A stretch of DNA of 64,000 nt from Candidatus Methanoperedenaceae archaeon (lineage in GTDB: Archaea; Halobacteriota; Methanosarcinia; Methanosarcinales; Methanoperedenaceae), in contig CAVWCX010000023.1 of the NCBI GenBank assembly GCA_963753595.1, positions 87,538 to 151,537 of the forward strand. The letters are read 5' to 3'. The translations under genes and the position numbers were made by a program. Shown here piece after piece: positions 14,425-34,012 of this stretch (position 1 is its first letter; every line of letters starts with the position of its first letter). A model generated the notes under the pieces. That model worked only from the letters and a program-made list of their open reading frames with translations, did no database searches and had not been told where the DNA came from.

Positions 14425-16926
14425 TTACTTTCTCTGCCTCAATACGAGATATGCTACTGCGAACAATCCTGCGATTGCAGTTATTATCCCAAAGCCCGGC
14501 TCTGTTGGAGTGGTCGTTGCGACAGGTTTACCTTCCGTGCCTGTTGGTTTGACTTCTCCTGCTGTTACTGTCGGGACTACTGTGAGGGTTTTGGTCGGTG
14601 CTGCTGTTGCTTTAACAGTTCCAGTTGCTTTTGCGGTACCTGTTGCTGTAACATCTGTTGGTTCGCCGATCGTGTATTCTACATATGGATAGAATCTCAA
14701 TGTATTGTTATCTGCAATTCTGAATTTCATATTTCCCATAAGGGTTGTTTCTGAATTCTTAGATAAGCTTACAGTGTTCTCGTTATCCATCACGATATTT
14801 GGTGTGAGTGACCTTACTTTGAATACACCGTATTGATCATCTGACTTGATTTCTTTTGCAGTGGTTTCATCGATCAACCATGCATACTTGAATTGTACCA
14901 TGTCTGAGGTAGCGCCTGAGAATATACTGCTTACATATACTGTGAACAATAATGCATCAGATTCTCCGAGAATGGTCTTCTTCTTGTAATATACAGCTTT
15001 TGATTTAGCTACGCCTGTATTCTCTGTTGGGGCCTGACCGATGCCTTCATCGACTACTGCTCCGTCTTTCTTCAGAGTGAACCATACCTGTCTTGGGGTT
15101 GTTCTTGCATCTATGGCGTTGATATTTAACTCATAGCCTGCGCCGAGTGCCCATGTTTCACCGGTTGTAAGGGTCTTCTTATCATCTTTACCCATCTCCA
15201 ATGTCAATTTGGCGATCTTGTTGGTTACGCCTTTTACAGCTACCCATTTCTCAGCTTGCCAGCCAACAACACCATAAGTTGCATCCTGATCTACTTTTAC
15301 AGGATCTGTAACAGTACCTGCGGCATTGAATGTTGATTCTTTCTCATAGACTTTGAACTCAACTGGGGCCTGTCCTGTTGTGTATTTTAACTCGTTCTTA
15401 GCGATTGTTCTGCCTGTATAGGAAGAAACAGGATTAGTTAATTGCAGTGTTTCAGTGGTTCTATCGTATTTGATGTCATAGTAAAATCCAGCCCAGTTAT
15501 AGGAATCCCATTTTGGTGCTCCGACTGTGCTTTCCTGAACTACTGTTCCCCTGGTTTCATAGGTTCCAGCGGTTAAATGTTCTACAAATGGATAGAATCT
15601 AAGTGTATTGTTATCTGCAATACTGAATTTCATATTTCCCATAAGGGTTGTTTCTGAATTCTTGGATAAGCTTACAGTGTTCTCGTTATCCATCACGATC
15701 TTTGGTGTGAGTGATCTTACTTTGAATACACCGTATTGATCATCTGACTTGATTTCTTTTGCAGTGGTTTCATCGATCAACCATGCATACTTGAACTGTA
15801 CCATGTCTGAGGTAGCGCCTGAGAATATACTGCTTACATATACTGTGAACAATAATGCATCAGATTCTCCGAGAATGGTCTTCTTCTTGTAATATACAGC
15901 TTTTGATTTAGCTACGCCTGTATTCTCTGTTGGGGCCTGACCGATGCCTTCATCGATTACTGCTCCGTCTTTCTTCAGAGTGAACCATACCTGTCTTGGG
16001 GTTGTTCTTGCATCTATGGCGTTGATATTTAACTCATAGCCTGCGCCGAGTGCCCATGTTTCGCCGGTTGTAAGGGTCTTCTTATCATCTTTACCCATCT
16101 CCAATGTCAATTTGGCGATCTTGTTGGTTACGCCTTTTACAGCGATCCATTTCTCAGCTTGCCAGCCAACAACACCATAAGTTGCATCCTGATCTACTTT
16201 TACAGGATCTGTAACAGTACCTGCGGCATTGAATGTTGATTCTTTCTCATAGACTTTGAACTCAACTGGGGCCTGTCCTGTTTCGTAAACTAACTTGTTC
16301 TTCTGGATCAGTCTGTCAGCTTGAAGGTTCGCTGGAGAATCATCGGCTTTTATTGTCAACGTTTCAGTTGATCTGTCGTATTTGATGTCATAGTAGAATC
16401 CCTCAAAGTTCAGGGCATTCCATACGAATGGGCTTGCTGGAGACGCTCCATTTGAATAAATATAGCTCCAGATTCTGGGCGCTGTTGCGCTTGCTGTACC
16501 GCCTACAGTTACAACGGAAGTTGCCACAACGCCAGTATTTGTATCTGCGTCGACAAATGTTCCGGTGAAGCTATAAGCGCCTGGTGCTGCTGCTGGTGCA
16601 GTTACTGTATAAGTAAATGCCGTTGCTCCAATTTTAGTAAAGTCTAGTACCTGGCCAGTCTGGACTACATCCGTTGCGGTTGTTGAAACATATGTAAAGC
16701 CTGCTGGTAAAGTCTCAACTACACCGTAAAAGTCTCCTGTTGCTACTACTCCGCCTGGTGTCAACGTTACTATTATCGTCGAACCATTGGCAGGAGTTGT
16801 TGTTGAAAATGATCTCGTTACTGATCCTGTGCTGACTGCTGCCATTGCTGGTGTTGCAATGACACTTAATATAATAGTCATCACAATGAAAAGTAATGAG
16901 ATATTTTTTAATGATACTCTTTTCAT
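14425..16926 (-). CDS. S-layer protein (two Methanosarcinales S-layer/DUF1608-type domains, Thr-rich linker, PGF-CTERM anchor) with an extra N-terminal domain
   Basis: Signal peptide. F.GFYYDI...TETL and LRFYP motifs occur twice. Ends EPGF + TM helix + RQRK. Confidence 0.92.
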   Translation of the reverse strand: MKRVSLKNISLLFIVMTIILSVIATPAMAAVSTGSVTRSFSTTTPANGSTIIVTLTPGGVVATGDFYGVVETLPAGFTYVSTTATDVVQTGQVLDFTKIGATAFTYTVTAPAAAPGAYSFTGTFVDADTNTGVVATSVVTVGGTASATAPRIWSYIYSNGASPASPFVWNALNFEGFYYDIKYDRSTETLTIKADDSPANLQADRLIQKNKLVYETGQAPVEFKVYEKESTFNAAGTVTDPVKVDQDATYGVVGWQAEKWIAVKGVTNKIAKLTLEMGKDDKKTLTTGETWALGAGYELNINAIDARTTPRQVWFTLKKDGAVIDEGIGQAPTENTGVAKSKAVYYKKKTILGESDALLFTVYVSSIFSGATSDMVQFKYAWLIDETTAKEIKSDDQYGVFKVRSLTPKIVMDNENTVSLSKNSETTLMGNMKFSIADNNTLRFYPFVEHLTAGTYETRGTVVQESTVGAPKWDSYNWAGFYYDIKYDRTTETLQLTNPVSSYTGRTIAKNELKYTTGQAPVEFKVYEKESTFNAAGTVTDPVKVDQDATYGVVGWQAEKWVAVKGVTNKIAKLTLEMGKDDKKTLTTGETWALGAGYELNINAIDARTTPRQVWFTLKKDGAVVDEGIGQAPTENTGVAKSKAVYYKKKTILGESDALLFTVYVSSIFSGATSDMVQFKYAWLIDETTAKEIKSDDQYGVFKVRSLTPNIVMDNENTVSLSKNSETTLMGNMKFRIADNNTLRFYPYVEYTIGEPTDVTATGTAKATGTVKATAAPTKTLTVVPTVTAGEVKPTGTEGKPVATTTPTEPGFGIITAIAGLFAVAYLVLRQRK
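14686..16282 (-). repeat. Two near-identical ~695-bp intragenic direct repeats (14686-15379 and 15589-16282)
   Basis: Offset 903 bp. Only scattered substitutions are visible between the copies. Confidence 0.95.
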
Positions 16927-17246: not shown

Positions 17247-20200
17247 TCATCTAAAACGTCTCAAAACAAATACGATCAATAATATGGCTAATGTATCCGC
17301 CAATGTAAGCATACTTGTGTTTTTATTCTCCGGGACTTTCAAACTCCCGCCCTCAATTATGAACTCATGTGAAGATGGCAGGCCCCAATTGTCTTTCCTT
17401 TCCATGGCTTCAATATACACCATATGTTTACCGGATGATAATTTTGATAGATCAATCCGGGCAAATACTTCCTCTGCCTGGGAATCAAAAACCCCATCCA
17501 CAGGATACATCCTGAATTTTTCAGGCTGCAAATCAATATAATACCTTGTATCTCTTACCTTCATTTTATATCCGGCAGATGCAGATGCTTTCAATATTGT
17601 CCTGTTATCTTCTTTTACCAAAGATATTTTCTTAATTGCAGGCGTCACATGCAACCGCGAAATTTCATGAATATTTGATACATGGCAGGATCCACACCTT
17701 TCAAACCTGTGTTCCTCGTCACCTATGTAAACTGCGCCGTAATTATTCCCGGTTGCGGCATGGCAGCTTACGCAGGTCCTCGGGGTTTTGTAACCGGAAG
17801 GATGCGCAGTGATATTTTTCGTTCCCCCGTGGCATGCGCGGCAGGCATTGTTGCCCCCGCCATCTATTGCATCATGCTTTCCAAGGGCTAGTATTTTTTT
17901 CACTGAAAAACCATCCTTCCCATGACATGAAAGACAATTAGCTCCACCGTTGCTGCCATCGAATAGCTGGAGGGAATGGAAATTTTCAGGGATACTCCCA
18001 ACATTAATAGTGGAATTTTCCCATAACCAGCTTGCATTATAACCCGCAAGTGTCTGGTTTTCCATTATTTTCCTGATTTCAGGAGATATGCCGGCTACCT
18101 CATCGAGAATTACCATATTCTTTGGTTTTGCCTGGATTATTCCCGAAACCTTTGCCCTGAAAATAGTAATATTCTTTGGCTGGTTCCCAAGATAATTTAT
18201 GCTCGGGGTAAATTCAAATATGCCCCCCCGATTCACGAGATCCTCGTAAAAATAATCGCCGGTACGCAACTGGAGGAAAGCCACTTCGTCTTTGGTATCC
18301 ACTCCTTTAACTACAAGGCTTGTTCCATCCGAAATATTCCAGGTTTCTCCTTCAAACAGTGACCTGCGTTTTTCCGGCTGGATGGTCACATGCAGGTCTT
18401 TATCTGTAAGAGCCCCTAATAATTGAAGAACAACAGTTTCATCGAAGATTTCATTATCGGTAAAATTGACAATTTCTTTCGTGTAATATATTTCATCTTT
18501 CTCACCGCTGACCCTTTCGATGACTTTATACTTTGCTTTTGGCATTGCTTTCACATGGCATGAATAGCATGCTGTGGTTTTTTTCTCAGGATGGACTCTT
18601 TTTAACCTGAAACCTTCGTACTGGATAAAGCCAGTATCATTTCCTTTGAAAATGCCTGTGATATTCATTACAATTACAGGCACTTTTTCACTTCCGTTGT
18701 CGATAGTGAGGTATTCCTCATATGTATAATTTCCAATACTTACAAGGCTCTTATCTACAGGGATATTTTCTTTTATAAGTTCTATCAGCACGCTGTTTCT
18801 GACGAATGAGACTTCAAGTACTTTGAGGTTAAAACCGAAACCAAAGTCCACAGATTCCCCCTCCATGGCGGTGAATTTGTTATTTTCCCTGTTGAGTTCT
18901 ACAAGTGCCGTCCTGTTCTCGTATATCAACGTAGCATTGCCCCACTTCCTGGAGTTGTCCTCGTTAATATGGCAGTAAATGCAATTGATACTGTCAAACA
19001 GATCGCCTGAGGCAAAATGGGATACGGTTGAATTTATGTTCCTGCCCTGTGAATTTACGCTGTTTACATGGCATTCCTGGCAGTCATTACTGGTTGTTAC
19101 GTTGTAATTGACAACATTATTCGGATTGTCGATCATGCTTGCGTTCCTGAAATGTGAATATATCATAGGAGCGCGGAATTTCTGGCCCAGGGAATGGCAC
19201 TCATCATTGCTGCACTTTTTCGGTGATTTATATCCTGCTGGATGTCCCGAGGGCTTTGTCCCATTGCCATGACAGGCCCAGCATGATGAACTTCCGCCAC
19301 CATTGAGGCCATAATGCACGCTTTTATTGAATGCATCCATGTCTATTCTCTTATCGGGAGGTGCGCCGCCACCCCTGCTGCCATGGCATGAGATGCAATC
19401 AGGCCCGCCTCCGCCCGTTCCGACATTATGAATAAATAAAGCGGTTGTTGCAGGTGAATTTACTCCATGGCAGGCCTTACATGCCGCATCTGAATATTCA
19501 CCCAGGGAGTGGTTATAGAAAGCAGTTCCATCACTTGCTTTTTCGGGAACAAGCCCTGAATTGTCCTGTATTTCAGGCGGTACCGGATAATATGAGTCAC
19601 CATTATAGGAATAATTTCCTGCCGGAACACCACCTTTATAATGACAGTTGGCACACCAGTATGATGTATTTGTTATATTCTGGTTGGGTAAATTTCCAGA
19701 TCGTATGTTTTCCACTTTTCCAAGCGCATTCAAATTGTGTAGAGCCTGTACATGGCAATATTCGCATGAACTGCTGGTATTGCCCCAGTACTCTGGTTGA
19801 GAACCGTTCCACAAGGTGCCAGAGTTGGGATTCACGCTATGGTTCATTGGCGGCAAGATCCATGCTTCAGGGAACATTCTTAGCCCGCTGCCCTGATGGC
19901 AGGTCGTGCAATTTGCAGCAGGAAACGGCAGTCTGAATTTAACGCCACCCGTAAAGTTATGGCAGCTTGTACATCCGGTAACATTAATGGCGCGGTAGCT
20001 TCCGTCAGGCTGGATATATCTTATATTATGAATATCTGAAGGTGTTGCTGTATGACATCTTATGCATTCAACCTTTCCGGAATGTTTGTTTTTCGGTATC
20101 CGATCATTTGAGTGACAGTTATTACAGAAACCAGATGATGGCACGGGTTTTACAATATTTTCCCCATGCAGTTTATCCTGCCCATGACAACTTGTGCAGT

Positions 20201-20802
20201 CGGGGGGAAAACCTGCAGGATGAAATGGATAGATAGAAGAAGCAGTATGGTTACTTATTCTCGTGTTATCCGGGTTTTGCATAACATCCTTATAAATGGT
20301 AGAAGAATTTTGATGGCAGAAAGTGCAATATGTTTTTCCTGGCGGTATGCCAAAACTGGAGTTCCTTCCGTAATGGGCTGCGCTTGCACTGGCGCTGAAC
20401 CTGAAGAGATTTGATGTCTTGTTATGGCAATCAACGCAATCTGCGGTTACAGACAAGGGCAGCGTTCCTGTTGTGATTAGATACTCTCGGAGCAGACGGG
20501 ACAATTCCGTCAACATGGCAATTCTCGCAGGTATATGTTGATACCGGAAATATTGATACAGGTATCCGATGCGGCCCGGAGGTATTGACCGAATAATGGC
20601 ACGCCATACAATCAAGGCTTGTGAGAATTCCTGCTCCATCTGCTGAATTTACATTGACATGAACTCCGATTAGAGAAGTGTCAATAGCGGGGAATGAACC
20701 AATATCAGTCTGATGACATGCCATGCAATCAAGCACTGCACTTCCCGCGTATGCTGATGAAAGATAAAACAATAATGATAGTAAGAACAGAATTTTTTTC
20801 AT
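17247..20802 (-). CDS. Large multiheme c-type cytochrome with S-layer-like domains and C-terminal TM anchor (+1 frameshift near 20456)
   Basis: Signal peptide in ORF 20431-20802. 22 CXXCH plus one CX4CH counted across both frames. Segment RRSLFEGETWNI.. resembles the S-layer segment KKTLTTGETWAL. Confidence 0.9.
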
Positions 20803-21038: not shown

Positions 21039-21353
21039 TCAGACATTCTTGCCAAATTTTTCTATCCAGGAAAAATGCCCGCCTGGTGTTATTATTTTAT
21101 TTCCACCATCTGTCTTGATTACTATTGCTTTTTCAGGAATTGCACTATCTGGATATAATTGACCCTGGCATTCGGCATTTAGGTTACCGCCGCTTGTCAA
21201 AACTAACTTGTAATCTCCCGACCCGGTGTAGTGCATGCCATCTACCCATTCATTCAGGCTACATGTTCCTGAATCGTGGGTTGCTGGCTCTGCAAGTGCA
21301 GCCGGAACCAATAAAGACGTTACGATCAGTAACGCAATTGTTTTTCCAATCAT
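21039..21353 (-). CDS. Small secreted hypothetical protein
   Basis: GGAGG RBS, signal peptide ending ALA-E, two Cys. Downstream GGGAGA/TCTCCC hairpin at ~21002-21018. Confidence 0.7.
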   Translation of the reverse strand: MIGKTIALLIVTSLLVPAALAEPATHDSGTCSLNEWVDGMHYTGSGDYKLVLTSGGNLNAECQGQLYPDSAIPEKAIVIKTDGGNKIITPGGHFSWIEKFGKNV

Positions 21354-21576: not shown

Positions 21577-21710
21577 CTAACCGCGTAAGTATGCCCTAAC
21601 TACTGCTATAGCATCTGCCTTGGAAATTCCACCGCCAGTTAAGTAGTTTCGGACTGCTGCCACAGCTTCTGTCTTCGAGAAAGTTCCATTGTGGTCTGTG
21701 TCCCAATACT
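21577..21710 (-). repeat. C-terminal EF-hand/dockerin-like module, copy A
   Basis: WDTDHNGTFSKTEAVAAVRNYLTGGGISKADAIAVVRAYLRG. DNA closely matches 26177-26305 and 29763-29893. Confidence 0.9.
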
Positions 21711-24305
21711 GAAATGTCTCCAGGTGGCACTGTACCTCCGCCCGCGCCAACAGAAGCATTCACTTCGTTAGCTAGCGTTAGTGAATCATCCAGTAGTTGA
21801 TCTACTTTTGTTGGATTGTGTACGCCCCAGCTTTCGTCGGAATACACCAATCTGACATTCCAGTATGCCTGAGCGATCTTAACTTTAGCCGCGCTCTTTT
21901 CACCTGTATAGGCGTTATAATTCGCCAATGCAGACATAACCGATCCGTTAGTGGAATTCCACTTCGCCTGGGTATCAGACTTTATGGTTTCGATAACCTC
22001 AGGGATAGTTCCTACTACCGATCCTGCCTCATGGCAGCCTTTGCATGCTGTGAGGGTCTGAAGACCAGTGGCATTAACTTTGAAACTATGTCCTTTTGTC
22101 TTCTGGCTATCATCAAGTATAGATCCTGATGCATCGGTTGTGTTTATATACATGTGACAATCAATGCACTCGAATTTCATAATACTTGACTCTTTCCATG
22201 AACCAACAAAAATATCCTTTGCCGGGAAACCATGTGGCGCTTATTGGAGTAGTAGATGTGGCAGTTGCCCATCCAGGCCCTTCGCTGCCTATTCTGACAT
22301 TCGAATGGCAGTTTCCGCACAACTCTACGGTATTTGGCATCATGGTATAGTTAGCTTTGTATCTGGTTACAGCGCCTGTTGTCGAATTCGTGGCCGCAAC
22401 GAGTGCATCCCTGTTATACCATGCATAGTATTTTGCCGTTCCGAACGCCGCTTTGGTCTTTGCGAGCCAGTCACCCATGTCATGAAGATTATGACACACG
22501 TCACATGTAATACCCTTGAAGTTATCAGGGGTCAGTGGAACTGTAGCGGTGTTTGCAGTGCCATTGCTGTAATAGTCAGTCAATGGGTTCCAGTTGAACG
22601 GGGAGTGGCATTTATTACAAGAGTTTGCTCTTGATTTTGTAGTGACTACACCAGTCGTTCCGTTGATGCTCCTATAGTAACTACTATTAGGATTTTTGCT
22701 TACCCCAACTTCCACGTCATTATGTGCGCTTGCCTTCCATTCTCTTATCACAGGGATAATTGAATATTTGCTTTTACTCAGGTTTTGAGCGCTTGTGGTA
22801 TGGCACCCTGAAGCTTTTCCGCATGAGTTGTTGCCCAATGCATTAAGATCATGTTTCTTCATAACGATCCTCTCAGTGCTGCCTGCCTTTTCCATGTGGC
22901 AATCTATGCATGCTGCTGCAGCATCTTTGCCGTAATAGTAAGTACCATGCGACAGATTAACTGCTCCGATATGGCCAAGCCCGTGTCTGAAATGGCACTT
23001 TGAGCACAATATTGTTGATACGTCAGTACCTGGAATAGATATTCCTGCAGTACCATAGCTTGTATCTTTTCTGTCAGATACTGTGCCAGGATATAACAGG
23101 GCAGGGAAACTGAGTTTATCGAAAATAGCCGAACCCGCTTCGAGTGAAGCAGTTGCATTGAAGAAAGCCAGCTTCGCTACTTTTATATTCGCTGCTGTTG
23201 CTGTATTGTAACCGCCTGGTGAATATAATGCTGCATACTGGTCATCAGTCATATCATGGACATTGTGACAGACACCACACGCCACATTGGTAGCACTCTC
23301 TTCCGTTATAATATTGTTTTTATATTTATCAAATGGCGAATGGCATTGTGTGCAGCCGCTTGGTGTTTCCGCGGTCGGTGGTGCATGAGCGCCCTTTTCC
23401 CAATTAGTTGCATGGGATCCGGTTCCTGTAATATGGCATTCCTGGCACAGGCCGGCGGAGTAGTTTACAACTACCTGATGTCCATTGCCTGCAGGTTTAT
23501 GACATCTCTCACATCCGATACCTGGTTCTGCGAAGGTTCCGTTTATGCCTGGTAACTTGCCATTCAGGAGGCTTGCACTCCAGGTGCTGTTATCCCAGCC
23601 AGTAGTATGGCATTTTCCACAGGTGCCGTATGCGCCGCCAGCATGACTGCTGCTTTCAAATTCCTGGGTTGTACTATTATATTCATCATTCGCAGCAAGG
23701 AAATATCCATTTACGTCAATATAGTTCAGTACCGGCTTTGAAACTATAACATAGGATATGCCTGCCCAGCCAACACCTGGTGCTGGAAGACCCATCGCCT
23801 GGGCAGTAGTTCCTGGTGTCAACATGACGCGATGCATTGTGTTAGTCCAGTTATTGTATTTTGCACTGTGACAATCTTTGCATACTGAAGAATTCAGGTA
23901 TGTTGGAGTGCCCGAAAGCAAATTGAAATTGTTTCCAGGCGCATTCACATGGCAGTTCGCGCATCCGCCAGCTGGTAACATTTTTGCTGCCAGCGTGGTT
24001 GCACTATATCTGTGATTTGTATTATATGACGAACCAGTGGCTGTAAGCGGAAGAAATGCGCTCAGATCAGTATGGCAAGTTAAACAGCTTGATCCGTTTG
24101 ATGGAACTGAAATTCCATTAAATTTATGAACATCCTTGAAATAGCTACCATCGGTTGTCAATGTATAATCGCTACTTACAATACTTACATGACAGTAGCC
24201 GCAATCTGCTCCCGCAGACCCATATCCTTGTTTCGCGCTTCCTGTACCTGCCAGCGCCAGCAGTAATATCAAAATTCCTATACCTAATATAATTTCTTTT
24301 CTCAT
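21577..24305 (-). CDS. Multiheme c-type cytochrome (~17 hemes) with c552/NrfA-like C-terminal helical bundle and EF-hand/dockerin-like tag (+1 frameshifts near 22239 and 21706)
   Basis: Signal peptide. 16 CXXCH plus CGKASGCH. D.SWGVHNP motif. The three ORFs join when single bases are removed. Confidence 0.88.
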
Positions 24306-24564
24306 ATTTCGATTCTCCTCCTTACCTAAAGTCTTCGTTTTTTATCATAATTCATGACAATAAAATTTTAGATTAAGCCCCATTTTTAATAATTATCCCT
24401 CTTTTCCTCGTCATTTTGACCGCCTTTAGAATTAGCGATAACAAAATACATTTTAAAATATATTTTTTGCTTCAATATTCCATATCCTCCTTCTAATTAA
24501 TAATACCATGATTATAAATTTTATAACTTACGTATAAAACTTATATCAAATAATTATGGTTATG

Positions 24565-24586
24565 ATGATATAAATAACTTTTGCTG
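24565..24586 (-). promoter_or_regulatory. Putative BRE/TATA promoter of the cytochrome gene
   Basis: Minus strand reads CAGCAAAAGTTATTTATATCAT (purine-rich BRE followed by TTTATA). Confidence 0.45.
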
Positions 24587-24601
24587 ATAAAATCCATGTG
24601 T

Positions 24602-26010
24602 GGTGGTTACCAAGACCCCCTTGAAACCATTGGTAGATTTTTTTTCACCTCCTATGTGAGATATGCAACCGAAGAGAGATTTTCTTTTATACCATGCTGC
24701 AATCGTGCAAATGCTACTGCCAGCATGGCAATACAGCATTCTGTCACGTGAAGATCAATATTCTTCATACCTTTGCCATTCAAATGTGCCTCAACTTCAA
24801 GGTGATCTTTCAGATAGCTATTGATTCCTTCATTGCTGTTTCTTCTATGGTAAAGATCAAGAACAGTATCGGGACACTCATCATATTTATTCATATAGTC
24901 ATTTCTAAAATACATGGCAACAGGGTCATGAAATCCCTTTTTGACAAGAAATTGCATTTTATATTCAAGAGAAGCATCTTTCTTATATTTTGAATCTTGC
25001 CAATTTTTTCTATAGAGATAATTAATCTCCTGTTCAGGGGAGTAGATATAGGTTTTTCCATTAAACCTATGCTCGTATTTTACATTTTCTCTCCAATCCT
25101 TGTCAATATGATAATGTGACATCAAACCCATTTCAACATGAGCAAATGCAATGTTTTTGTTGCTGTTATAACCGCCATCGAACCAAGTCTCTTCCATGTT
25201 CATCCCGGCAGATACTGCTGTCTTTCGGAGCATATCTTCAAGATATTTATCATCATCTTCAGTTCCACCGCATACCTTTTTGGCCAGGGGAATATTGTGC
25301 TCATAATCCATGGTTATTTGTGCTTTGACCATCTTTTTCTTATAATGGCCATTGTATTTTCCATCAGGATCGTTATGTGTCTTGATTGGAGTACTATCTG
25401 TTCCAGTGCATTTTCCAATTTTTAAATCCAATCGGTTACCAGCTTCTACAACCTTTATACAAAAAAGTTGCATTATAGAATCCATCCCCTTATTACCCAG
25501 TCTCACTTTTTCGAAATGCCTCAAAGTTTCATGATCTGGAACTATGATATTTTCATCCGGATCAATATTGAAACCCAATTCTAGTGCCTCATCAGGATGT
25601 GTTCTTAAGTTTCTTTCCTCTTTCGTATAATATTTTATTGTCTTTATGTTTCTCCAGATAAATGCCTTTACCATTGCCCTTCTTGGATACGTTTCCACTC
25701 CTTCTTTAACGGTATAATGTTTGTTGATTTCAGGCATTATCGGATCAAGGTTTAATCCTTCCAGAAATTTTGATGCCCGAACGCTGTTCTCGGAGGTTGC
25801 ATCTGCAAACTCTTCATTATTTGCATCGGTCAGACCGATGAATTTGTTCCAATAGCTTTTTATTTGCTTATCAACATTAAACTCCATTGTTCATCCCCTC
25901 TTTGGAATTTTGTGATTAAAATAATAATGGGGGGATGAATAATATAAATCTTACTGCAAGTATAAAAAATAGTTAAATTTATAAGGCAAACCTATGAATT
26001 GGTAACCACC
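24602..26010 (-). mobile_element. Intact insertion sequence (DDE transposase, IS4/IS5/IS1182-like clan)
   Basis: Perfect 12-bp TIRs GGTGGTTACCAA (24602-24613) and TTGGTAACCACC (25999-26010). 6-bp target duplication ATGTGT at 24596-24601 and 26011-26016. Confidence 0.92.
24652..25887 (-). CDS. DDE transposase
   Basis: DSTP, FDGGY and Y..R.SNEG.NS.LK (YREK-like) catalytic motifs. Confidence 0.9.
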   Translation of the reverse strand: MEFNVDKQIKSYWNKFIGLTDANNEEFADATSENSVRASKFLEGLNLDPIMPEINKHYTVKEGVETYPRRAMVKAFIWRNIKTIKYYTKEERNLRTHPDEALELGFNIDPDENIIVPDHETLRHFEKVRLGNKGMDSIMQLFCIKVVEAGNRLDLKIGKCTGTDSTPIKTHNDPDGKYNGHYKKKMVKAQITMDYEHNIPLAKKVCGGTEDDDKYLEDMLRKTAVSAGMNMEETWFDGGYNSNKNIAFAHVEMGLMSHYHIDKDWRENVKYEHRFNGKTYIYSPEQEINYLYRKNWQDSKYKKDASLEYKMQFLVKKGFHDPVAMYFRNDYMNKYDECPDTVLDLYHRRNSNEGINSYLKDHLEVEAHLNGKGMKNIDLHVTECCIAMLAVAFARLQHGIKENLSSVAYLT

Positions 26011-26176
26011 ATGTGTAGAATCCTGTAAAATACGAAGTCACTACATCAATAGCTTGTCGCCAGGTTAATGTTCCACGCAGGTAGCCAGTAGCTCCCCTTA
26101 TTGCTTTTTCCCATCTATCCTGCCACCCAGTATCAAAAAAAAAAGAAGTAATTATATTTCAACTTTTTGTTTCAGG

Positions 26177-26305
26177 TTATTTGAAGTATGCTCTAACAAC
26201 TGCTATAGCATCTGCCTTGGAAATTCCACCGCCAGTTAAGTAGGCTCGGATTGCCGCCACAGCTTCAGTCTTTGAGATAATACCGTTCTTGTCTTTATCC
26301 CAGAA
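26177..26305 (-). repeat. C-terminal EF-hand/dockerin-like module, copy B
   Basis: Shares tctgccttggaaattccaccgccagttaagtag exactly with copies A and C. Confidence 0.9.
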
Positions 26306-29245
26306 TGCAACCTGGGACGATAATGTACCTGGTTCTGTCACAATAACCGTTGTTGTTCCGCTTGTGTAGCCTGTCAGGGTTGCAGTTACATTTATTGCGC
26401 CTTTGCTGGTAGCGTTCACTCCGGTTATGTTTACTAAACCATTAGTAGTTGTGCCGCTTTTGCTGACACCTGCCCCGCTAAGTGTAATTAAAACACCGCC
26501 AAGTGCCGGAGTGACAGTGAAGACTATATTAGTTGGAGTGCCTGCTGTTACTGTACCGGGTATTGCGGATACTGCCAGTGTTCCATTATCCTCTGCCGCT
26601 ACAGGTGATTTTAATGCGAAATCATCCACGATAAACGCAGTCAAATAACCGCTATCTGTTGTAGCGCTTAACTTTAACCGGACCGTCTGCCCTTTGAATT
26701 CTGATACATTATATTGTGCGCTTATCCTGTAGCCATAACTCCTGTTAAGATTACTCAGGTTCGCAAATGTTTTTAATAAAGTATTATCCGAAGGACTCCT
26801 TATTTCAAGTCCCATATTATCATAAGCAATATCAGTAGATACTTCATTTGTCTGGATCCAATACCAGAATTGGAGATACACATTTGCTGCACTTGAGGGA
26901 ATTGTTACATCCTGGTAAATATAATCATTGGCGTTGTCATACCCCCCCAGGTATGCAAACCTGCTTCCACTACGAGAATATGCCGAATTATTATTTATCC
27001 GGGGATTTCCATTGCTGCCATACTGTGTCCATCCGGTATTCCCGCCCTCAAAACCAGGATTGGCCAATACGCCTAAATTTTCTGATGGCGCAGGGAACAT
27101 ATTGCAGTAATTGGAATAAATCCCATGATTTGCATAAAATGCTGTGCAGATTTCAAAGATATGCGGCGTACCATCTCTCAGGTTCGCATTGTTATCATCT
27201 GCGACTAATACGTCTTCAAGGTATTCTGTAAAATTAAAGGGTTCAAGTTTCATTGCGTTAATAATAAGTTCATCTGATGTTTTATTTCCCAACATCTCCC
27301 TTAGATCCCACGCAGCGCCTGATACTATACTGCTGTCATCGTGAACCTCGCCAACAATATCATCCGGATATTTTTTTGTATTGTGGATATCCCTCAGGCA
27401 AACACCAAGAAAGCCTTCTCCAAAGCATGAATTGTCATTTACCGAACTTGTAAAATAATCTGCCCACCCTTCATCCAATGCACCGCTTTCATCGCGATAA
27501 GGCAGATTTGTTGTATAAATATGATCGACTACGCTATGGGTGTATTCGTGGTTGATAATATCGCCAAATAACGATGCTGCCTCGCAGCCACTACCGGCTC
27601 CATAGAAATAGAGATCTTTGCCATCGGAAAGTGCATTGCAGGTGCCAGGATACTGAACGTATGCCGTCGTCTGGTAGTTCATGGCATAAATATCAAATGG
27701 ATATCCTTTTGTAAAGAAGTCATGCATTGCATTTATGTGATAGAATACATTTGACTGCTCTTTTTTATAAGATGTATCGTAATCATTCCAATCCCAGTTG
27801 TGAACAGATGGTGTTGTAATTGAAACCTGGTGATTAGCATCATTCCCGCTATAATTAAATACTCTTACATTCGGACCCTCAAGCGCTGAGGACAGGATAA
27901 AGCTGCCCGGAAGTCCCGAAATACTGTAGTTCCCATCTGCACCGGTCGTACCTATTGTCGTATAAATTGGCACAATTTGTTGATTTATAGAAAAATTGTA
28001 GTTATCCCAATATCCAAAGTTGTCAGCATTATCTACAAAAACCACTCCATTGTTGGTTATAACCTTTATTTCGTCTATATACCACCCATCATATGCTATG
28101 TAAGAATCAGTAGTATATTGAAATTCTATCCATATAGTATGTCCTATATAATCAGACAGGTCAAGGTTTATTGTTTTCCATGTACTGGAGTTGCCTGTAA
28201 ACGATTTGATCCCATAATAATTAGTTCCATCTGTAGATATATATACAAATCCTTTATCATAGTTGGTCTCCATAGAATAATTTGCCCTGAATTGAAGAGT
28301 TGCAGAGGAAACACCGGCAAGATTAATGGGATTTTTGAGATACAACCGATTATCCAAATTGTCACCTTTTCCTGACCAGAATACATTACTGGAAGAACTT
28401 CCATAATTATAGAGGTTCTCTGCCCCTGATCCTTTCACTACCATAGTCTGTGGGTTTTCCGGATACATTGGCACTGTAACTCTTCCGCTTAACGTGTTGG
28501 ATACGATCTTGTTGTATTTCTCAAGAATTTCACCGTTATTGGCATCAACGATATATACCCACTTTGCAGGAGGATTTTCGATAAGTCCGGGTTCTACCTT
28601 GTAAGCGAGGCGATATTCAACAACTTCACCTGTGTATCTGGGAAATACAAGAAGTGAAATTCCTTCAACATTTGTTTTTATCTCTTTTGCTGCGTTATTC
28701 TTATTTGCAGATTTTTGGATATTCTGGTTATTGATGTGTATTGGTTTTTGGAGCACAGCCTTTGTTTCCAGGGGAACTCCCAGATCATTCTCTACGATCC
28801 CTGTTGCATCTGATTCACTTAATACTGGTTTTGTGCTGATATCTATTTTAGGGCGGTGGGTAGATTTCAGAGTCACTATCTTTTCATCTTTGACCCCTAC
28901 TATTACACTACTTGAATAAACAGGCAGTCCATTATAGGTCTGGGTATATTTTAATATTGATAATGACCCTTTTTTTGTATCGTTGTAAGAAGAAGACAGA
29001 ACCAGATCATCTGGATTTATTTTATATCTTGAACCAAGTGCGGAACGGATTTTTGAATCCATATCGTTGCGGGAAATGGAATTTTCGCTATCAAGGTCGA
29101 AAACTTCTCTTGTGATCATCTTTTTCTCATCTGGATGAATATTATTTCCAGGGTCAATACCGTCGTTAATATTTTTCCCAGGAACTGCGGAAGAATATCC
29201 CGCCAGCAACGCAAGAATTAACAAAACAAATATATATAGTCTCAT
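26177..29245 (-). CDS. Secreted Zn-metallopeptidase (thermolysin/fungalysin M4/M36-like) with FTP and PepSY propeptide, beta-sandwich inserts, Ig-like domain and EF-hand/dockerin-like tag
   Basis: Y.QTYNGLPV, YIVDANNGEIL, HEYTH...ALDEGWADYF and GEVHD motifs. C-terminus WDKDKNGIISKTEAVAAIRAYLTGGGISKADAIAVVRAYFK. Confidence 0.88.
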   Translation of the reverse strand: MRLYIFVLLILALLAGYSSAVPGKNINDGIDPGNNIHPDEKKMITREVFDLDSENSISRNDMDSKIRSALGSRYKINPDDLVLSSSYNDTKKGSLSILKYTQTYNGLPVYSSSVIVGVKDEKIVTLKSTHRPKIDISTKPVLSESDATGIVENDLGVPLETKAVLQKPIHINNQNIQKSANKNNAAKEIKTNVEGISLLVFPRYTGEVVEYRLAYKVEPGLIENPPAKWVYIVDANNGEILEKYNKIVSNTLSGRVTVPMYPENPQTMVVKGSGAENLYNYGSSSSNVFWSGKGDNLDNRLYLKNPINLAGVSSATLQFRANYSMETNYDKGFVYISTDGTNYYGIKSFTGNSSTWKTINLDLSDYIGHTIWIEFQYTTDSYIAYDGWYIDEIKVITNNGVVFVDNADNFGYWDNYNFSINQQIVPIYTTIGTTGADGNYSISGLPGSFILSSALEGPNVRVFNYSGNDANHQVSITTPSVHNWDWNDYDTSYKKEQSNVFYHINAMHDFFTKGYPFDIYAMNYQTTAYVQYPGTCNALSDGKDLYFYGAGSGCEAASLFGDIINHEYTHSVVDHIYTTNLPYRDESGALDEGWADYFTSSVNDNSCFGEGFLGVCLRDIHNTKKYPDDIVGEVHDDSSIVSGAAWDLREMLGNKTSDELIINAMKLEPFNFTEYLEDVLVADDNNANLRDGTPHIFEICTAFYANHGIYSNYCNMFPAPSENLGVLANPGFEGGNTGWTQYGSNGNPRINNNSAYSRSGSRFAYLGGYDNANDYIYQDVTIPSSAANVYLQFWYWIQTNEVSTDIAYDNMGLEIRSPSDNTLLKTFANLSNLNRSYGYRISAQYNVSEFKGQTVRLKLSATTDSGYLTAFIVDDFALKSPVAAEDNGTLAVSAIPGTVTAGTPTNIVFTVTPALGGVLITLSGAGVSKSGTTTNGLVNITGVNATSKGAINVTATLTGYTSGTTTVIVTEPGTLSSQVAFWDKDKNGIISKTEAVAAIRAYLTGGGISKADAIAVVRAYFK

Positions 29246-29255
29246 TTTTTTCTCC

Positions 29256-29642
29256 TTATGTTCTGAATAATTGTTCTTTCTTGATCACTTCATTCCCCTG
29301 TTCATCGTAATAATAATCCCATGCCAGGCCTTCCCCTATTCTGACCTTCCATACTGTTTTTCCTTCCAGGGTTGCTGTTTCAATGTTCTTTATGCTTTCT
29401 TCTGTTACATTATAAGTGATCGGTCTTCCTGCAATATCATGGTAAACAATAGATGTTCCAATCAGGTTGTTTTTAATCTTTTCTTTTATGGCATCGCTGC
29501 CAACAGGTTCAGGAATTGTATATGTATTATTATTGGAATTGGCAGGCTTCTCCACGCAACCCGAAATGAATAATATAGAAAATACAATAATTGTTATTAT
29601 CATAATCAGCCCAAAGACATTCATCCTTTTTTTTTGTAACAT
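29256..29642 (-). CDS. Putative lipoprotein with PepSY-like C-terminal fold
   Basis: Lipobox-like ISGC after a hydrophobic stretch. VWKVRI..YYYDEQGNEVI resembles the PepSY pattern. Confidence 0.65.
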   Translation of the reverse strand: MLQKKRMNVFGLIMIITIIVFSILFISGCVEKPANSNNNTYTIPEPVGSDAIKEKIKNNLIGTSIVYHDIAGRPITYNVTEESIKNIETATLEGKTVWKVRIGEGLAWDYYYDEQGNEVIKKEQLFRT

Positions 29643-29762
29643 TTTTTCACCTGAAACAGCAACGACTGGAATTTAATTAGAGTAAAGACCCTATTTTAAG
29701 TATTCTTTGATACTATTTAATTATTTCGATACAAAAAATATTGTGTAGAGTCCTGAAATTGT

Positions 29763-30098
29763 CTAACCGGTTAAGTATGCCCTAACTACTGCTACAGCGT
29801 CTGCCTTGGAAATTCCACCGCCAGTTAAGTAGGCTCGGACTGCTGCTACAGCTTCTGCCTTCGAGATAGTTCCACTGTGGTCAGCGTCCCATACTGCAAC
29901 TTCAGGCGACAATTCAGTAGGTGTATAAGTAAAAGTGCTTGTACTGCCAGATGTAATAATGTAAGTGCCGCCAGGGGTCAATGTATCCACAATTGGTGTC
30001 TGGTCAATAGTCACAGCAGATGTAATCTGAAATGATATGATCAGGACCGTTAAAATGGTGAATAAAATCTTAATGGACATAGCATTTATTATTTTCAT
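29763..30098 (-). CDS. Small secreted protein consisting mainly of a Thr-rich spacer plus the EF-hand/dockerin-like tag (copy C)
   Basis: Signal peptide. Ends WDADHSGTISKAEAVAAVRAYLTGGGISKADAVAVVRAYLTG. Confidence 0.8.
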   Translation of the reverse strand: MKIINAMSIKILFTILTVLIISFQITSAVTIDQTPIVDTLTPGGTYIITSGSTSTFTYTPTELSPEVAVWDADHSGTISKAEAVAAVRAYLTGGGISKADAVAVVRAYLTG

Positions 30099-32544: not shown

Positions 32545-33360
32545 ATGATAGAAAATATCATCTGGCTGGCGCTTGGATTGCTTGTTATAGCTTCGCTTAT
32601 CCCGCTTCATAATAAGATGAAACTTCCTCTTGCAGGAGTTAGCTGGCTGTTTTTTTCAATACACTGGCTGTTACAGTGGAGGCACTATTATGAGCTGGAA
32701 GATTATGTCAATGTATTCCTTACGATCTTTGCAGCGGTTTTTAGCATTTTCATAGGTTACCTCATGATAAAGAAAGACAAAAGATTGTTTGGGAAGATCA
32801 ATGGAATAGACACCCTGACCTCTATTTCGATGATGACCACAGCGGCAGCAATAGGTGGTCTTTCTTATTTTCTTTTTTCCGAGATACCTTCAATGAATTC
32901 ATGGATAATCTCGACAGTCACAGACCAGACCGTATGGATCGGATCGCTCCTTGGAATAACGATAACAAGGCTTGATTGGAACCTGATAGCAGTGAACGGC
33001 TACAAAGTGGAGATAATCCTTGCATGTACGGCTATTGAAAGTATAGCATTATTTATCGGGATAATAGCAAGTGTCAATGCGCCGGTAAAAAGACTGGCCC
33101 TGGCTTTCGTGATCTCTGTTCCTGTAATATATGGTTTGAATCTTATAAGAAATGTTTTTGTGGTTGATGCTTATGGTATGACATGGTTTGGCGATCCGGA
33201 AATGAGTTTTTATATCGCCCATACCGTGATAGCAAAAATAGGTTCATTGATAGCATTATTCATTGTAGCTTACGCAGTCCTTAAAATACTTCCCGAGATT
33301 ATTGATATGATCGATGGTGTCCTGAACCTTGTAGGAGGAATTTTTAAGAATGATGGCTAG
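32545..33360 (+). CDS. artA: Archaeosortase A
   Basis: Multi-TM protein. IILACTAIESIALF (catalytic Cys), NLIRNVF and AH..IAK.GSL motifs. Confidence 0.92.
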   Translation: MIENIIWLALGLLVIASLIPLHNKMKLPLAGVSWLFFSIHWLLQWRHYYELEDYVNVFLTIFAAVFSIFIGYLMIKKDKRLFGKINGIDTLTSISMMTTAAAIGGLSYFLFSEIPSMNSWIISTVTDQTVWIGSLLGITITRLDWNLIAVNGYKVEIILACTAIESIALFIGIIASVNAPVKRLALAFVISVPVIYGLNLIRNVFVVDAYGMTWFGDPEMSFYIAHTVIAKIGSLIALFIVAYAVLKILPEIIDMIDGVLNLVGGIFKNDG

Positions 33361-33988
33361 AGGTTCTTTTTCATGGATATCGGGAATTTTTCTATTCACG
33401 ATAGGGACATGGGTCGCATCCAGGAACGTAACCGGTTCATTATCATTGATTTTCTTTTTGTTATTCGCTATCGGATTTTTGCTCTCGGTTTTTTTCATTG
33501 TTTTTTTTCGCGACCCGGAACGAATACCCTCAGGAGATGAAGACGATGCAGTCTCGCCAGCTGACGGAAAAGTGATATCTATCCAGCACAGGACGGTCTG
33601 TATTTTTATGAATATCCATAATGTCCATGTGAACCGCGCGCCGCTTTCGGGTATGGTTACCCACATCGATTATAAACCGGGAGGTTATATCCCGGCCTTT
33701 AACAAGGATTCTGATGTAAATGAAAGGAACCATGTTGTTTTTAATACGGCAGCAGGGACTCTTGAATTGACACAGATCGCAGGTATCCTGACACGAAGGA
33801 TAGTCTCTTACATAAGCGAAGGGAATTATGTTAAAAGGGGAGAGCGTATAGGAATGATACGTTTTGGTTCCAGGGTGGATGTCACGATACCGGAAGGATA
33901 TGTTTTTACGGTAAACCTGAATGATAAAGTAAAAGCTGCCGAGACTATAATTGCCAGAAAAAAAGATAAAGTTCAACAAAAGTCATGA
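33350..33988 (+). CDS. psd: Archaetidylserine/phosphatidylserine decarboxylase
   Basis: FFRDPER, SPADG, NVHVNRAP and RFGSRVD motifs. Confidence 0.93.
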   Translation: MMARGSFSWISGIFLFTIGTWVASRNVTGSLSLIFFLLFAIGFLLSVFFIVFFRDPERIPSGDEDDAVSPADGKVISIQHRTVCIFMNIHNVHVNRAPLSGMVTHIDYKPGGYIPAFNKDSDVNERNHVVFNTAAGTLELTQIAGILTRRIVSYISEGNYVKRGERIGMIRFGSRVDVTIPEGYVFTVNLNDKVKAAETIIARKKDKVQQKS

Positions 33989-34012
33989 GATGAAGAAAAT
34001 AAGGGAAAATCT

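Follow-up and report, generated by a model that had tools for sequence, protein, structure and literature searches.

Genes and tag copies in the 64-kb window

The window (the whole stretch of 64 kb that was analysed) carries three minus-strand copies of a module of approximately 47-49 amino acids, hereafter called the tag, whose stop codons end at positions 21577, 26177, and 29763. The copies and the genes around them are as follows.

14425..16926, minus strand: S-layer protein (Pfam S-layer, 3.3e-111; PGF-CTERM, 28.7 bits; TIGR01567, TIGR04126)
17247..20802, minus strand: S-layer/multiheme cytochrome fusion with a C-terminal TM; +1 frame change near 20431-20639
21577..21726, minus strand: tag copy 1, downstream of the cytochrome ORF in another reading frame (HMM E 2.9e-35)
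21596..22180, minus strand: cytochrome middle piece, 194 aa, 2 CxxCH, c552-like
21705..21734, minus strand: second zone of +1 frame change, in a Gly-rich linker directly before the tag
22161..24305, minus strand: cytochrome N-terminal piece, 714 aa, signal peptide, 14 CxxCH
22209..22240, minus strand: first zone of +1 frame change in the cytochrome gene, from the overlap of P0158 tblastn pieces
24652..25887, minus strand: DDE transposase gene of an IS element (Pfam DDE_Tnp_1, 4.6e-9), between cytochrome and protease
26177..29245, minus strand: secreted Zn-metalloprotease (Pfam), intact, 1022 aa
26177..26326, minus strand: tag copy 2, C-terminus of the metalloprotease (HMM E 2.7e-31)
29763..30098, minus strand: mini-protein, intact, 111 aa
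29763..29912, minus strand: tag copy 3, C-terminus of the 111-aa mini-protein, 49 codons plus stop (HMM E 2.5e-32)
32545..33360, plus strand: archaeosortase A (TIGR04125, 253.6 bits versus a cut-off of 75)

Scanned with an HMM in all six frames, the entire 64-kb window yielded exactly three matches (E 2.9e-35 to 2.7e-31) and no fourth copy. Since the next match reached only E 0.86, the three-copy result is far beyond chance. These data confirmed the sequence-only reading, according to which three genes share one C-terminal module, including its claim of 33 bp identical in all copies: the longest string common to the three tails was exactly 33 nt. Counted from the Trp codon, the DNA of the copies was identical at 103/123, 111/123, and 100/123 positions in the three pairs, and no similarity upstream of the tag was seen in the printed pairwise alignments. 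Values of dS among the copies ranged from 0.10 to 0.49. The two copy pairs involving the protease showed dN/dS values of 0.38 and 0.29, while the value of 1.03 for the cytochrome and mini-protein tags rested on no more than 3 synonymous and 9 non-synonymous changes.

The stretch 21577-24305, previously taken to encode a single protein, was found to split over three frames, with the N-terminal piece (ORF 22161-24305), the middle piece (ORF 21596-22180), and the tag (stop-to-stop piece 21580-21759) each in its own frame. In this assembly, the cytochrome copy of the tag is thus out of frame. An intact relative, P0158 (875 aa, 16 CxxCH, tag in frame), aligned collinearly over all three frames in tblastn, with its residues 834-873 mapping to 21705-21589 in frame -3. 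P0007, a homologue of the middle piece, also has the tag in frame. A comparable +1 shift also interrupts an unrelated DUF475 gene and, in view of this parallel, the frame breaks in the cytochrome gene look like assembly errors.

The protease consists of a signal peptide, an FTP/PepSY propeptide, an InhA-like MAM domain, an HExxH motif, an Ig-like spacer, and the tag. The mini-protein has a signal-like N-terminus, a Thr/Ser-rich spacer of approximately 35 aa and the tag, and lacks a cargo domain; P0006, P0010, and P0236 are its homologues. P0236 is named '[Candidatus Methanoperedens sp.]', and this second Candidatus Methanoperedens MAG carries the tag both on P0236 and on P0237, a homologue of the window protease. 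This presence of the tag in a second MAG, together with the dS values given above, makes it doubtful that the tag was recently shuffled, as had been proposed.

In all three tagged proteins, the sole hydrophobic segment is N-terminal and signal-like; neither a C-terminal TM (hydrophobic 19-mer) nor PGF-CTERM (PF18204) was found in them. Their neighbours do carry an anchor, namely PGF-CTERM, together with a hydrophobic 19-mer near the C-terminus, in the S-layer protein and a C-terminal TM in the fusion protein, in agreement with the contrast originally noted. Archaeosortase A, the enzyme of this alternative (PGF-CTERM) anchoring route, is encoded in the same window. The absence of TM and PGF-CTERM from the tagged proteins, in a window with genes for archaeosortase A and for an S-layer protein bearing PGF-CTERM, points to a need for an anchor. 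A search for terminal inverted repeats around the DDE transposase gene gave no clear ones.

Fold and family of the tag

The module of approximately 47 residues comprises one canonical EF-hand Ca2+ loop and a duplicated helix. Each of the three window copies contains a loop of 12 residues carrying D1, D3, N/S5, G6, I/F8, and E12. In the mini-protein tag, the two helices form an internal repeat that matches at 12/14 aa and 34/42 nt; those of the cytochrome and protease tags each match at 8/14 aa. Both the canonical Ca2+ loop and the internally repeated helix of the sequence-only reading were thereby recovered. In the second repeat the helix is kept and a Thr-Gly-Gly-Gly turn replaces the ligand positions, leaving one Ca2+ loop per module. 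Loop statistics were compiled for the 79 of 85 modules that fitted the search pattern. Conservation of the Ca2+ ligands was nearly complete (D1 79/79, D/N3 78/79, D/N/S5 79/79, E12 77/79), and the structural positions were also well conserved (G6 67/79, I8 71/79).

An AF2 model of the mini-protein copy (pLDDT 95.9) predicted helices at residues 3-6, 18-30, and 36-48, arranged in a closed three-helix unit. The best 60 matches of the module in a PDB sequence search were EF-hand proteins only, and all 30 scanned 'loop-only' matches were EF-hand repeat proteins. Against the EF-hand Pfam models (PF00036, PF13405), the window copies scored 13.2-19.2 bits, below the cut-offs of 25-25.4, while the relatives P0046 (37.4 bits), P0097 (39.7 bits), and P0043 (29.5 bits) exceeded them. 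The loop ligands at positions 1, 3, 5, and 12, with Gly6 and Ile8, resemble those of calmodulin, recoverin, and lanmodulin; unlike these EF-hands, the tag has a single loop followed by a duplicated helix and is an extracellular C-terminal appendage. EF-hands normally act in pairs, as is also stated in CDD text. No such pairing was found within the one-loop module, and two or more modules occurred in 11 of 71 family members.

A search of 1.84 billion cluster representatives yielded 312 that match the module at E<=1e-3. The whole module is present in 71 of the best 150 of these matches, at most 7 residues from the C-terminus in 53 and internal or N-terminal in 18. Sixty of the 71 have a single loop without a paired EF-hand, and 11 are proteins of at most 130 aa without cargo. 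The 52 members scanned for cargo carried Big_1/Big_2/invasin Ig domains, cupredoxins, subtilases, NosD/beta-helix, cadherin, TIG/NHL, LRR, trypsin, papain, and lipase domains; P0050 combines S-layer and cupredoxin cargo, and P0007 carries the c552-like cytochrome piece. No Pfam or NCBIfam model covering the whole module was found for the window copies or the scanned relatives.

Of 23 module-bearing loci examined, 21 are in Dehalococcoidia MAGs. The family is widespread and occurs also in this class, so that it is not specific to ANME. Tag identity within a genome was 0.77-0.88 in four of the six genomes compared and stood at 0.63 and 0.41 in the remaining two, versus 0.39-0.61 between lineages. 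Species-specific dockerins show the same pattern of within- versus between-lineage similarity, and the similarity within genomes could reflect common descent alone. Confinement of the tag to the window copies, free of purifying selection, is contradicted by the 312 representatives and by the dN/dS values of 0.29-0.38 for the protease pairs. These results support the view that the tag is a genuine C-terminal module under selection, carried by secreted proteins from unrelated families.

Proposed retention at the cell surface

Homologous cargo proteins were compared for their C-terminal ends. The window protease (residues 1-878) shares 56% identity over 884 aa with P0217, whose C-terminal end is, in place of the tag, a Dockerin_1 domain (24.4 bits versus a cut-off of 22.9). 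This type of dockerin is near-identical at the extreme C-terminus of 28/28 proteins, among which are the homologous multiheme cytochrome P0191, metalloproteases, subtilisins, beta-helix proteins, and an S-layer protein; its cargo spectrum is the same as that of the tag. Among 57 homologues of the cytochrome, one (P0158) ends in the tag and one (P0191) in a dockerin. The other 55 end in neither: P0184, with 6 SLH stretches, and P0190 carry SLH domains, and the remainder have other C-terminal domains of unknown role. This occurrence of the tag in place of dockerin or SLH on homologous cargo makes a dockerin-like role in retention the best reading.

Two other routes of surface retention invite comparison. 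SLH domains are a non-covalent cell-wall anchor, found at the C-terminal end of the homologous multiheme cytochrome P0184, and bind bacterial secondary cell-wall polymers; in fold and sequence they are unrelated to the tag. The PGF-CTERM/archaeosortase A system likewise keeps secreted archaeal proteins at the surface by means of a C-terminal signal, which is a cleaved TM-helix signal, with a PGF motif before and a basic tail after the helix, that leads to a covalent anchor. As the tag has neither a hydrophobic segment nor a PGF motif, any retention by it would be non-covalent.

By analogy with these systems, and in view of its C-terminal placement, extracellular cargo, conserved Ca2+ ligands, and positional equivalence to dockerin and SLH across the family, the tag is proposed to be a C-terminal retention or docking module of the EF-hand kind that holds secreted proteins at the cell surface, with a probability of roughly 50%. 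The module is built of a short lead-in helix, a single canonical Ca2+ loop of 12 residues, and a pair of amphipathic helices that are near-identical and have a Gly turn between them; the second of these is a duplicate of the first that lost its loop. Signal peptides at the N-terminus would export the carrier proteins. Outside the cell, putative binding of Ca2+ in the loop would fold the tag into a compact three-helix knob, which may then plug non-covalently into a presumed envelope receptor. Candidates for this receptor are the S-layer itself, a scaffold anchored to it or, possibly, a domain resembling cohesin, and the covalently anchored PGF-CTERM S-layer protein is a possible docking surface. 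An otherwise soluble 16-heme cytochrome and the Zn-metalloprotease would thereby be kept at the cell surface, while tag-only mini-proteins might occupy or regulate the same receptor. Of the surface-docking tag suggested by the sequence-only reading, the modular C-terminal unit and a dockerin-like logic stand; no cohesin counterpart was found among the 50 window ORFs scanned (13 + 37).

Several observations fit retention less well. Some members lack cargo (11/71 of at most 130 aa), which is odd for a pure cargo anchor, and the internal or N-terminal modules (18/71), the members with at least two copies (11/71), the out-of-frame cytochrome copy with its dN/dS of 1.03 versus the mini-protein tag, the lack of a cohesin among the 50 window ORFs scanned, and the 55 of 57 cytochrome homologues with neither tag nor dockerin at their end also count against it.

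A bolder and more tentative form of the retention reading is a separate Ca2+-gated surface-display system with its own non-cohesin receptor, common to Methanoperedens-type archaea and Dehalococcoidia. In methanotrophs, it would hold cytochromes for extracellular electron transfer and proteases on the S-layer, with mini-proteins tuning receptor occupancy. A protein-walled envelope is a feature that Dehalococcoides shares with such archaea.

Alternatives and relation to dockerins

The tag might instead act without a partner, shielding the C-terminus as a Ca2+-dependent stabilising cap or nucleus for folding, or serving as an extracellular Ca2+ sensor. EF-hand features alone are demonstrable, no receptor (and no cohesin among the 50 window ORFs) was found, and many secreted proteases are stabilised by Ca2+, as CDD subtilase texts also state. 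One would, however, not expect a stabiliser to follow flexible or Ig-like spacers in proteins of so many unrelated folds, to stand alone as a mini-protein, or to be exchanged for dockerin or SLH on orthologous cargo, and this explanation is considered unlikely.

Somewhat less probable still is a true but degenerate dockerin, in which one F-hand repeat lost its Ca2+ loop and whose partner would be a cohesin elsewhere in the genome. The tag does share with dockerins a small Ca2+-loop/helix architecture with an internally duplicated loop-helix unit. Both form the very C-terminal end of secreted proteins from many families, with an Ig-like spacer often preceding them, and both are near-identical within a genome and occupy the same position on orthologous cargo (P0217, P0191). 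The top Foldseek match by query-normalised TM-score was dockerin 4uyp_B (TMq 0.51), though at E 7.5, and a Dockerin_1 cluster was among the language-model neighbours (ESM Atlas) at 0.85, which is a lead only. The S4 Data of PMC9012536 list a few cohesin proteins in Methanoperedens genomes, as well as a subtilase with CDD calls for EF-hand and type II dockerin on the same 49 C-terminal residues; judging from this double call, CDD models may already label such tags as dockerin.

Against dockerin identity, PF00404 matched 0/3 window copies (E<=1) and 0/52 relatives (E<=1e-3), whereas the positive control P0217 was recovered (24.4 bits, cut-off 22.9). An hhalign comparison of the module (34 sequences) with dockerin (28 sequences of low diversity, Neff 1.8) gave a probability of 1% and E 0.052, over an alignment of 17 columns spanning the loop only. 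Foldseek with the module gave 0/15 matches at E<=1e-3, and the best 60 PDB sequence matches were all EF-hand proteins. Dockerins, as described in PMC13487519, have two 12-residue Ca2+ loops in tandem, with a helix after each, and those of type I carry paired Ser/Thr at positions 10-11 of the loop. The tag has one loop and approximately 47 residues, versus two loops and 70 residues in the archaeal dockerin compared. It has Glu at position 12 (77/79), as in EF-hands, and in place of the Ser/Thr pair mostly Lys or Arg at position 10 (K 59/79, R 16/79), followed by a variable residue at position 11 (S 32, A 13, rest mixed). Dockerins are partners of cohesins, for which the 50 window ORFs scanned gave no counterpart. 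By PF00404, hhalign, and loop count, the tag is not detectably a dockerin. As homology is undetectable beyond the Ca2+ loop, the analogy rests on position and cargo, and not on descent. The dockerin architecture initially assigned to the tag was therefore retained as a dockerin-like logic, visible on orthologous cargo with dockerin or SLH, and judged improbable as an identity.

A Ca2+-dependent pairing module, in which lone EF-hands bind each other to form homo- or hetero-oligomers and mini-proteins act as caps, appears just as improbable as a degenerate dockerin. The usual pairing of EF-hands, the tandem modules, and the existence of tag-only proteins are in its favour. However, the AF2 model of the two-module protein P0069 was only moderately confident (pLDDT 72.6, pTM 0.54) and resembled no PDB EF-hand pair (0/147 at E<=1e-3; TM <=0.25 among the matches listed), the monomer model is already a closed unit, and the swapping of cargo with dockerin and SLH speaks for anchoring and not for oligomerisation. 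Lastly, the idea of a tag without function, either a DNA repeat or a remnant in decay that spread close to an IS element, is scarcely credible: the transposase gene between two copies, the out-of-frame copy, and the dN/dS of 1.03 would suit it, but it is contradicted by the breadth of the family, with invariant Ca2+ ligands across archaea and Dehalococcoidia, by the dN/dS of the other pairs (0.29-0.38), by the intact tag-bearing orthologues P0158, P0236, and P0237, and by the DUF475 gene with the same +1 split, which makes the frame breaks look like assembly errors.

The initial statement that no such system had been described in ANME was wrong for the concept. Dockerin and cohesin proteins in ANME, with a suggested role in cytochrome adhesion, have been reported (PMC5244752, PMC9012536), as have 'dockerin-like domain proteins' in Methanoperedens (PMC12246660). 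Should CDD-type models already label the tag as dockerin, its chief value would lie in showing that a share of the 'dockerin' proteins counted in ANME surveys belongs to a distinct one-loop class. An annotation gap is filled by a family of at least 312 cluster representatives for which no Pfam or NCBIfam model was found. If dockerin-like, the tag would offer a compact, orthogonal, Ca2+-dependent docking pair for protein display. As a small expressible module it would be usable as bait for the presumed receptor, and it marks a set of proteins whose release by EDTA can be checked. The retention reading bears on the means by which soluble multiheme cytochromes and other exo-proteins are retained at the surface of anaerobic methanotrophs, a matter relevant to extracellular electron transfer.

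Copies of the tag and their carriers

A six-frame scan of the whole window with an HMM of the C-terminal tag, a unit of ~47 residues with one EF-hand Ca2+ loop and a duplicated helix, retrieved only the three known copies (E 2.9e-35 to 2.7e-31); the next-best match had an E-value of 0.86. The copies belong to a multiheme cytochrome, a Zn-metalloprotease and a mini-protein:

End at 21577, minus strand: third tag copy, in a frame separate from both cytochrome ORFs
21596-22180, minus strand: cytochrome middle piece, 194 aa, 2 CxxCH
22161-24305, minus strand: cytochrome N-terminal piece, 714 aa, 14 CxxCH
26177-29245, minus strand: metalloprotease ORF, 1022 aa, tag at C-terminus
29763-30098, minus strand: mini-protein ORF, 111 aa, tag at C-terminus

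Each copy opens with a short lead-in and a Trp, followed in order by a 12-residue loop (D1, D3, N/S5, G6, I/F8, E12), a helix, a Thr-Gly-Gly-Gly turn and a second helix that repeats the first. In the mini-protein, 12 of 14 aa and 34 of 42 nt of this repeat were identical, and in the cytochrome and protease copies 8 of 14 aa each. An AF2 model of the tag, based on a 34-sequence alignment, predicted helices at 3-6, 18-30 and 36-48 with a pLDDT of 95.9. From the Trp codon on, DNA identity among the copies was 100-111 of 123 nt, while pairwise tail alignments revealed no similarity upstream of that codon. The longest string common to all three tails was 33 nt, in agreement with the 33 identical bp reported in the sequence-only reading. 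Values of dN/dS among the window copies, all derived from small counts, were 0.38, 0.29 and 1.03.

The N-terminus was signal-like in all three carriers. None of them had a C-terminal hydrophobic segment or a PGF-CTERM, the archaeosortase A signal for covalent anchoring, whereas a PGF-CTERM is present in the adjacent S-layer protein and a C-terminal TM in the neighbouring S-layer/cytochrome fusion. This check confirmed that the carriers, unlike their S-layer neighbours, are without a TM or PGF anchor. The protease combines FTP and PepSY propeptide motifs with an InhA-like MAM domain and an HExxH site.

The earlier claim that three proteins end in the tag held for the protease and the mini-protein, which carry it in frame, but not for the window cytochrome, whose tag lies in a third frame of a gene that comprises more than one ORF. 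This cytochrome copy is broken or mis-assembled. The architecture of a multiheme cytochrome with a tag is nevertheless real, because an intact relative, P0158 (875 aa, 16 CxxCH), has the tag in frame and is collinear with the window cytochrome through all three frames (59%, 63% and 52% identity). Cytochrome reading frame aside, the observation is real. ORF coordinates indicated four apparent +1 breaks in 64 kb, with the same direction in each:

11000-11046, +1 offset: unrelated DUF475/TerC gene (profile positions 1-97 and 120-286)
20431-20639, +1 offset: S-layer/multiheme-cytochrome fusion (ORFs 20431-20802 versus 17247-20639)
21705-21734, +1 offset: tagged cytochrome
22209-22240, +1 offset: tagged cytochrome

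These breaks resemble single-base insertions introduced by the assembly, although they could be genuine pseudogenes. Since the housekeeping-type DUF475/TerC gene is also broken, assembly error is the likelier explanation.

A transposase gene and two genes for small proteins adjoin the tagged genes:

21039-21353, minus strand: small protein of 104 aa, directly beside a tagged gene
24652-25887, minus strand: DDE transposase (DDE_Tnp_1 with DUF772), between tagged cytochrome and tagged protease
29256-29642, minus strand: small protein of 128 aa, directly beside a tagged gene

GC content around the transposase was low (0.349 for 24001-26000). No convincing terminal inverted repeats were seen at the IS boundaries, and a tRNA scan of the window gave no matches. 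Both small proteins have N-terminal hydrophobic segments and belong to no Pfam or NCBIfam family; they are candidates for tag partners or for unrelated surface proteins.

The tag family and its relation to dockerins

Of 1.84 billion cluster representatives searched with the three-copy profile, 312 proteins matched at E ≤ 1e-3. Among the best 150 of these 312 matches, 71 contained the full module and 79 the loop alone; all 30 loop-only proteins scanned (30 of 79) were EF-hand repeat proteins. In the 71 full-module proteins from these best 150 matches, the module was located at most 7 residues from the C-terminus in 53 cases and elsewhere in 18, two or more modules were present in 11, and 11 were no longer than 130 aa. 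A crude signal-peptide test was positive for 27 of the 71, a set that includes many metagenomic fragments. Cargo domains identified in a Pfam scan that covered 52 of the 71 were Ig-like Big_1/Big_2/invasin, cupredoxin, S-layer with cupredoxin, a c552-like cytochrome piece, subtilase, NosD/beta-helix, cadherin, TIG/NHL, LRR, trypsin, papain and lipase; one relative had a GmrSD_C nuclease domain with an Excalibur domain. As judged from these domain assignments, the cargo of the tag is of a predicted extracellular type.

Loop ligands, counted in the 79 of 85 modules that fitted the search pattern, were strongly conserved: D1 in 79 of 79, D/N3 in 78, D/N/S5 in 79, G6 in 67, I8 in 71 and E12 in 77. 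No Pfam model covered the module: EF-hand scores were sub-threshold for the window copies and at or below the Pfam cut-off for relatives. No NCBIfam match to the module was obtained in the 14 proteins tried. The best 60 matches in PDB sequence searches were exclusively EF-hand proteins (hippocalcin, recoverin, lanmodulin, calmodulin). A lanmodulin-like lanthanide site was rejected, as the likeness is limited to the generic EF loop, and a C-terminal signal of the T1SS/RTX type was rejected because the carriers have N-terminal signal peptides and the tag is single-looped.

Membership of the dockerin family, suggested by the 'dockerin-like' label of the sequence-only reading, was not borne out. 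Dockerin_1 (PF00404) was unmatched in Pfam scans of the three window copies and 52 relatives; as a control, the dockerin of P0217, a homologue of the window protease, scored 24.4 bits with the same Pfam library. Alignment of the module with 28 archaeal dockerins by hhalign gave a probability of 1%, with 17 loop columns aligned. Dockerins, as defined in the available part of PMC13487519, have two loops and paired Ser/Thr residues at positions 10-11 of the loop, whereas the tag has one loop, no such pair and a Glu at position 12. Three signals give weak hints in favour of the rival explanation that the tag is a true but degenerate dockerin. Comparison of the predicted structure with the ScaB dockerin gave a TMq of 0.51 but a non-significant E-value of 7.5 in Foldseek, and none of 15 matches to the PDB reached E ≤ 1e-3, the domain being too small for Foldseek statistics. 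A Dockerin_1 cluster occurred among the language-model neighbours of the tag (0.85). Finally, the accessible portion of PMC9012536 S4 Data part 215 includes an ANME-set subtilase of ~900 aa with two CDD calls on its last 49 residues, one for EF-hand (cd00051) and one for type II dockerin (cd14254), so that tags of this sort may be labelled 'dockerin' by CDD models.

Exchange of C-terminal modules and proposed attachment to the envelope

The window protease and P0217 showed 56% identity over 884 residues and parted only past residue ~878, where P0217 has a spacer and a canonical dockerin. Dockerins of the P0217 type (68-100% identical) were located at the very C-terminus of all 28 proteins found with them, which include the cytochrome homologue P0191, M6 and MAM metalloproteases, subtilisins, beta-helix/NosD proteins, a trypsin-like protease and an S-layer protein. 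This dockerin and the tag share one cargo list. The C-terminus of 57 cytochrome homologues (P0151-P0207) was likewise variable, with the tag in one (P0158), a dockerin in one (P0191), SLH repeats in two (P0184, P0190), an unnamed beta-type domain in 25 and, in 7, another unnamed helix pair whose members are similar and which lacks a Ca loop, the last two types being assigned by simple motif counts. In this family of 16-heme cytochromes, the C-terminus is a site of module swapping.

With a dockerin on P0217 and P0191 and SLH repeats on P0184 and P0190, the tag thus fills the slot that known non-covalent anchoring modules take up in related organisms. By analogy with these modules, it probably works like a dockerin, as a modular surface tag. 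The corresponding earlier proposal stands in spirit, but not with respect to family membership, novelty of the concept or specificity to ANME. According to the proposed mechanism, the carrier protein would be exported by Sec, after which the tag would bind Ca2+, fold and dock non-covalently onto an envelope receptor. Alternatively, the tag might act as a Ca-dependent stabiliser without a partner, against which its occupation of an anchoring slot has to be weighed. Tag-tag pairing is a further rival; complex prediction weighed on neither side, two tag copies with two Ca scoring 0.02 in both runs versus a mark of 0.42 in a set-up whose controls did not fold. An AF2 model of a protein with two modules, and its Foldseek comparison, were likewise uninformative.

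A covalent route is encoded in the same window:

32545-34699, plus strand: archaeosortase A (TIGR04125, 253.6 bits), then directly archaetidylserine decarboxylase and archaetidylserine synthase

This PGF-CTERM lipid-anchoring set lies ~16 kb from the PGF-CTERM S-layer protein (14425-16926), its likely substrate, and is not used by the tagged proteins.

Previous descriptions and occurrence of the tag

The earlier statement that no such system had been described in ANME proved incorrect for the concept, which was already published for dockerins and cohesins. Both domains are reported in ANME in the available parts of PMC5244752, which proposes that they act in cell contact or in cytochrome adhesion, and of PMC9012536, including S4 Data parts 73 and 215. 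Syntrophic partner bacteria are treated in the accessible text of PMC10553843, and 'Dockerin-like domain proteins' of Methanoperedens MAGs in that of PMC12246660. The one-loop module is not described in the available part of PMC13487519. No literature joining Methanoperedens with EF-hands was found, nor was any description of the one-loop module as such in literature on Methanoperedens EF-hands or archaeal dockerin-like/EF-hand domains. One-repeat dockerin-like modules may be described in a study of non-cellulosomal cohesin/dockerin-like modules.

The nearest relatives, P0236 (mini-protein homologue), P0237 (protease homologue) and P0005 (Ig-repeat protein), are named '[Candidatus Methanoperedens sp.]', and the cytochrome homologues ANME-2 cluster archaeon or Candidatus Methanoperedens. 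The window context (CdhD, DUF2114, Ni-insertion protein, archaeosortase A) fits a methanogen-related archaeon. Tag identity within a genome was 0.77-0.88 in four of six genomes but 0.63 and 0.41, respectively, in the remaining two, as compared to 0.39-0.61 between lineages. In a module tree, the window tags fell inside an all-Trp clade, with a support of 0.955 for the 7-tip clade and of only 0.39 for the innermost clade. This within-genome likeness and the all-Trp clade would fit a dockerin-like slot, without proving it.

A degenerate-pattern scan of genome contigs, which reached no Methanosarcinales genome, identified at least 122 loci, 99 of those listed being without the full module. The full module was present in at least 23 listed loci, of which 21 were in Dehalococcoidia MAGs and 2 in 'uncultured archaeon'; the family is therefore not ANME-specific. 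A single Dehalococcoidia MAG contained at least six module loci (L012, L048, L068, L069, L072, L088) with tags that were mutually 0.68-1.00 identical, and thereby parallels the multi-cargo use of the tag in the window.
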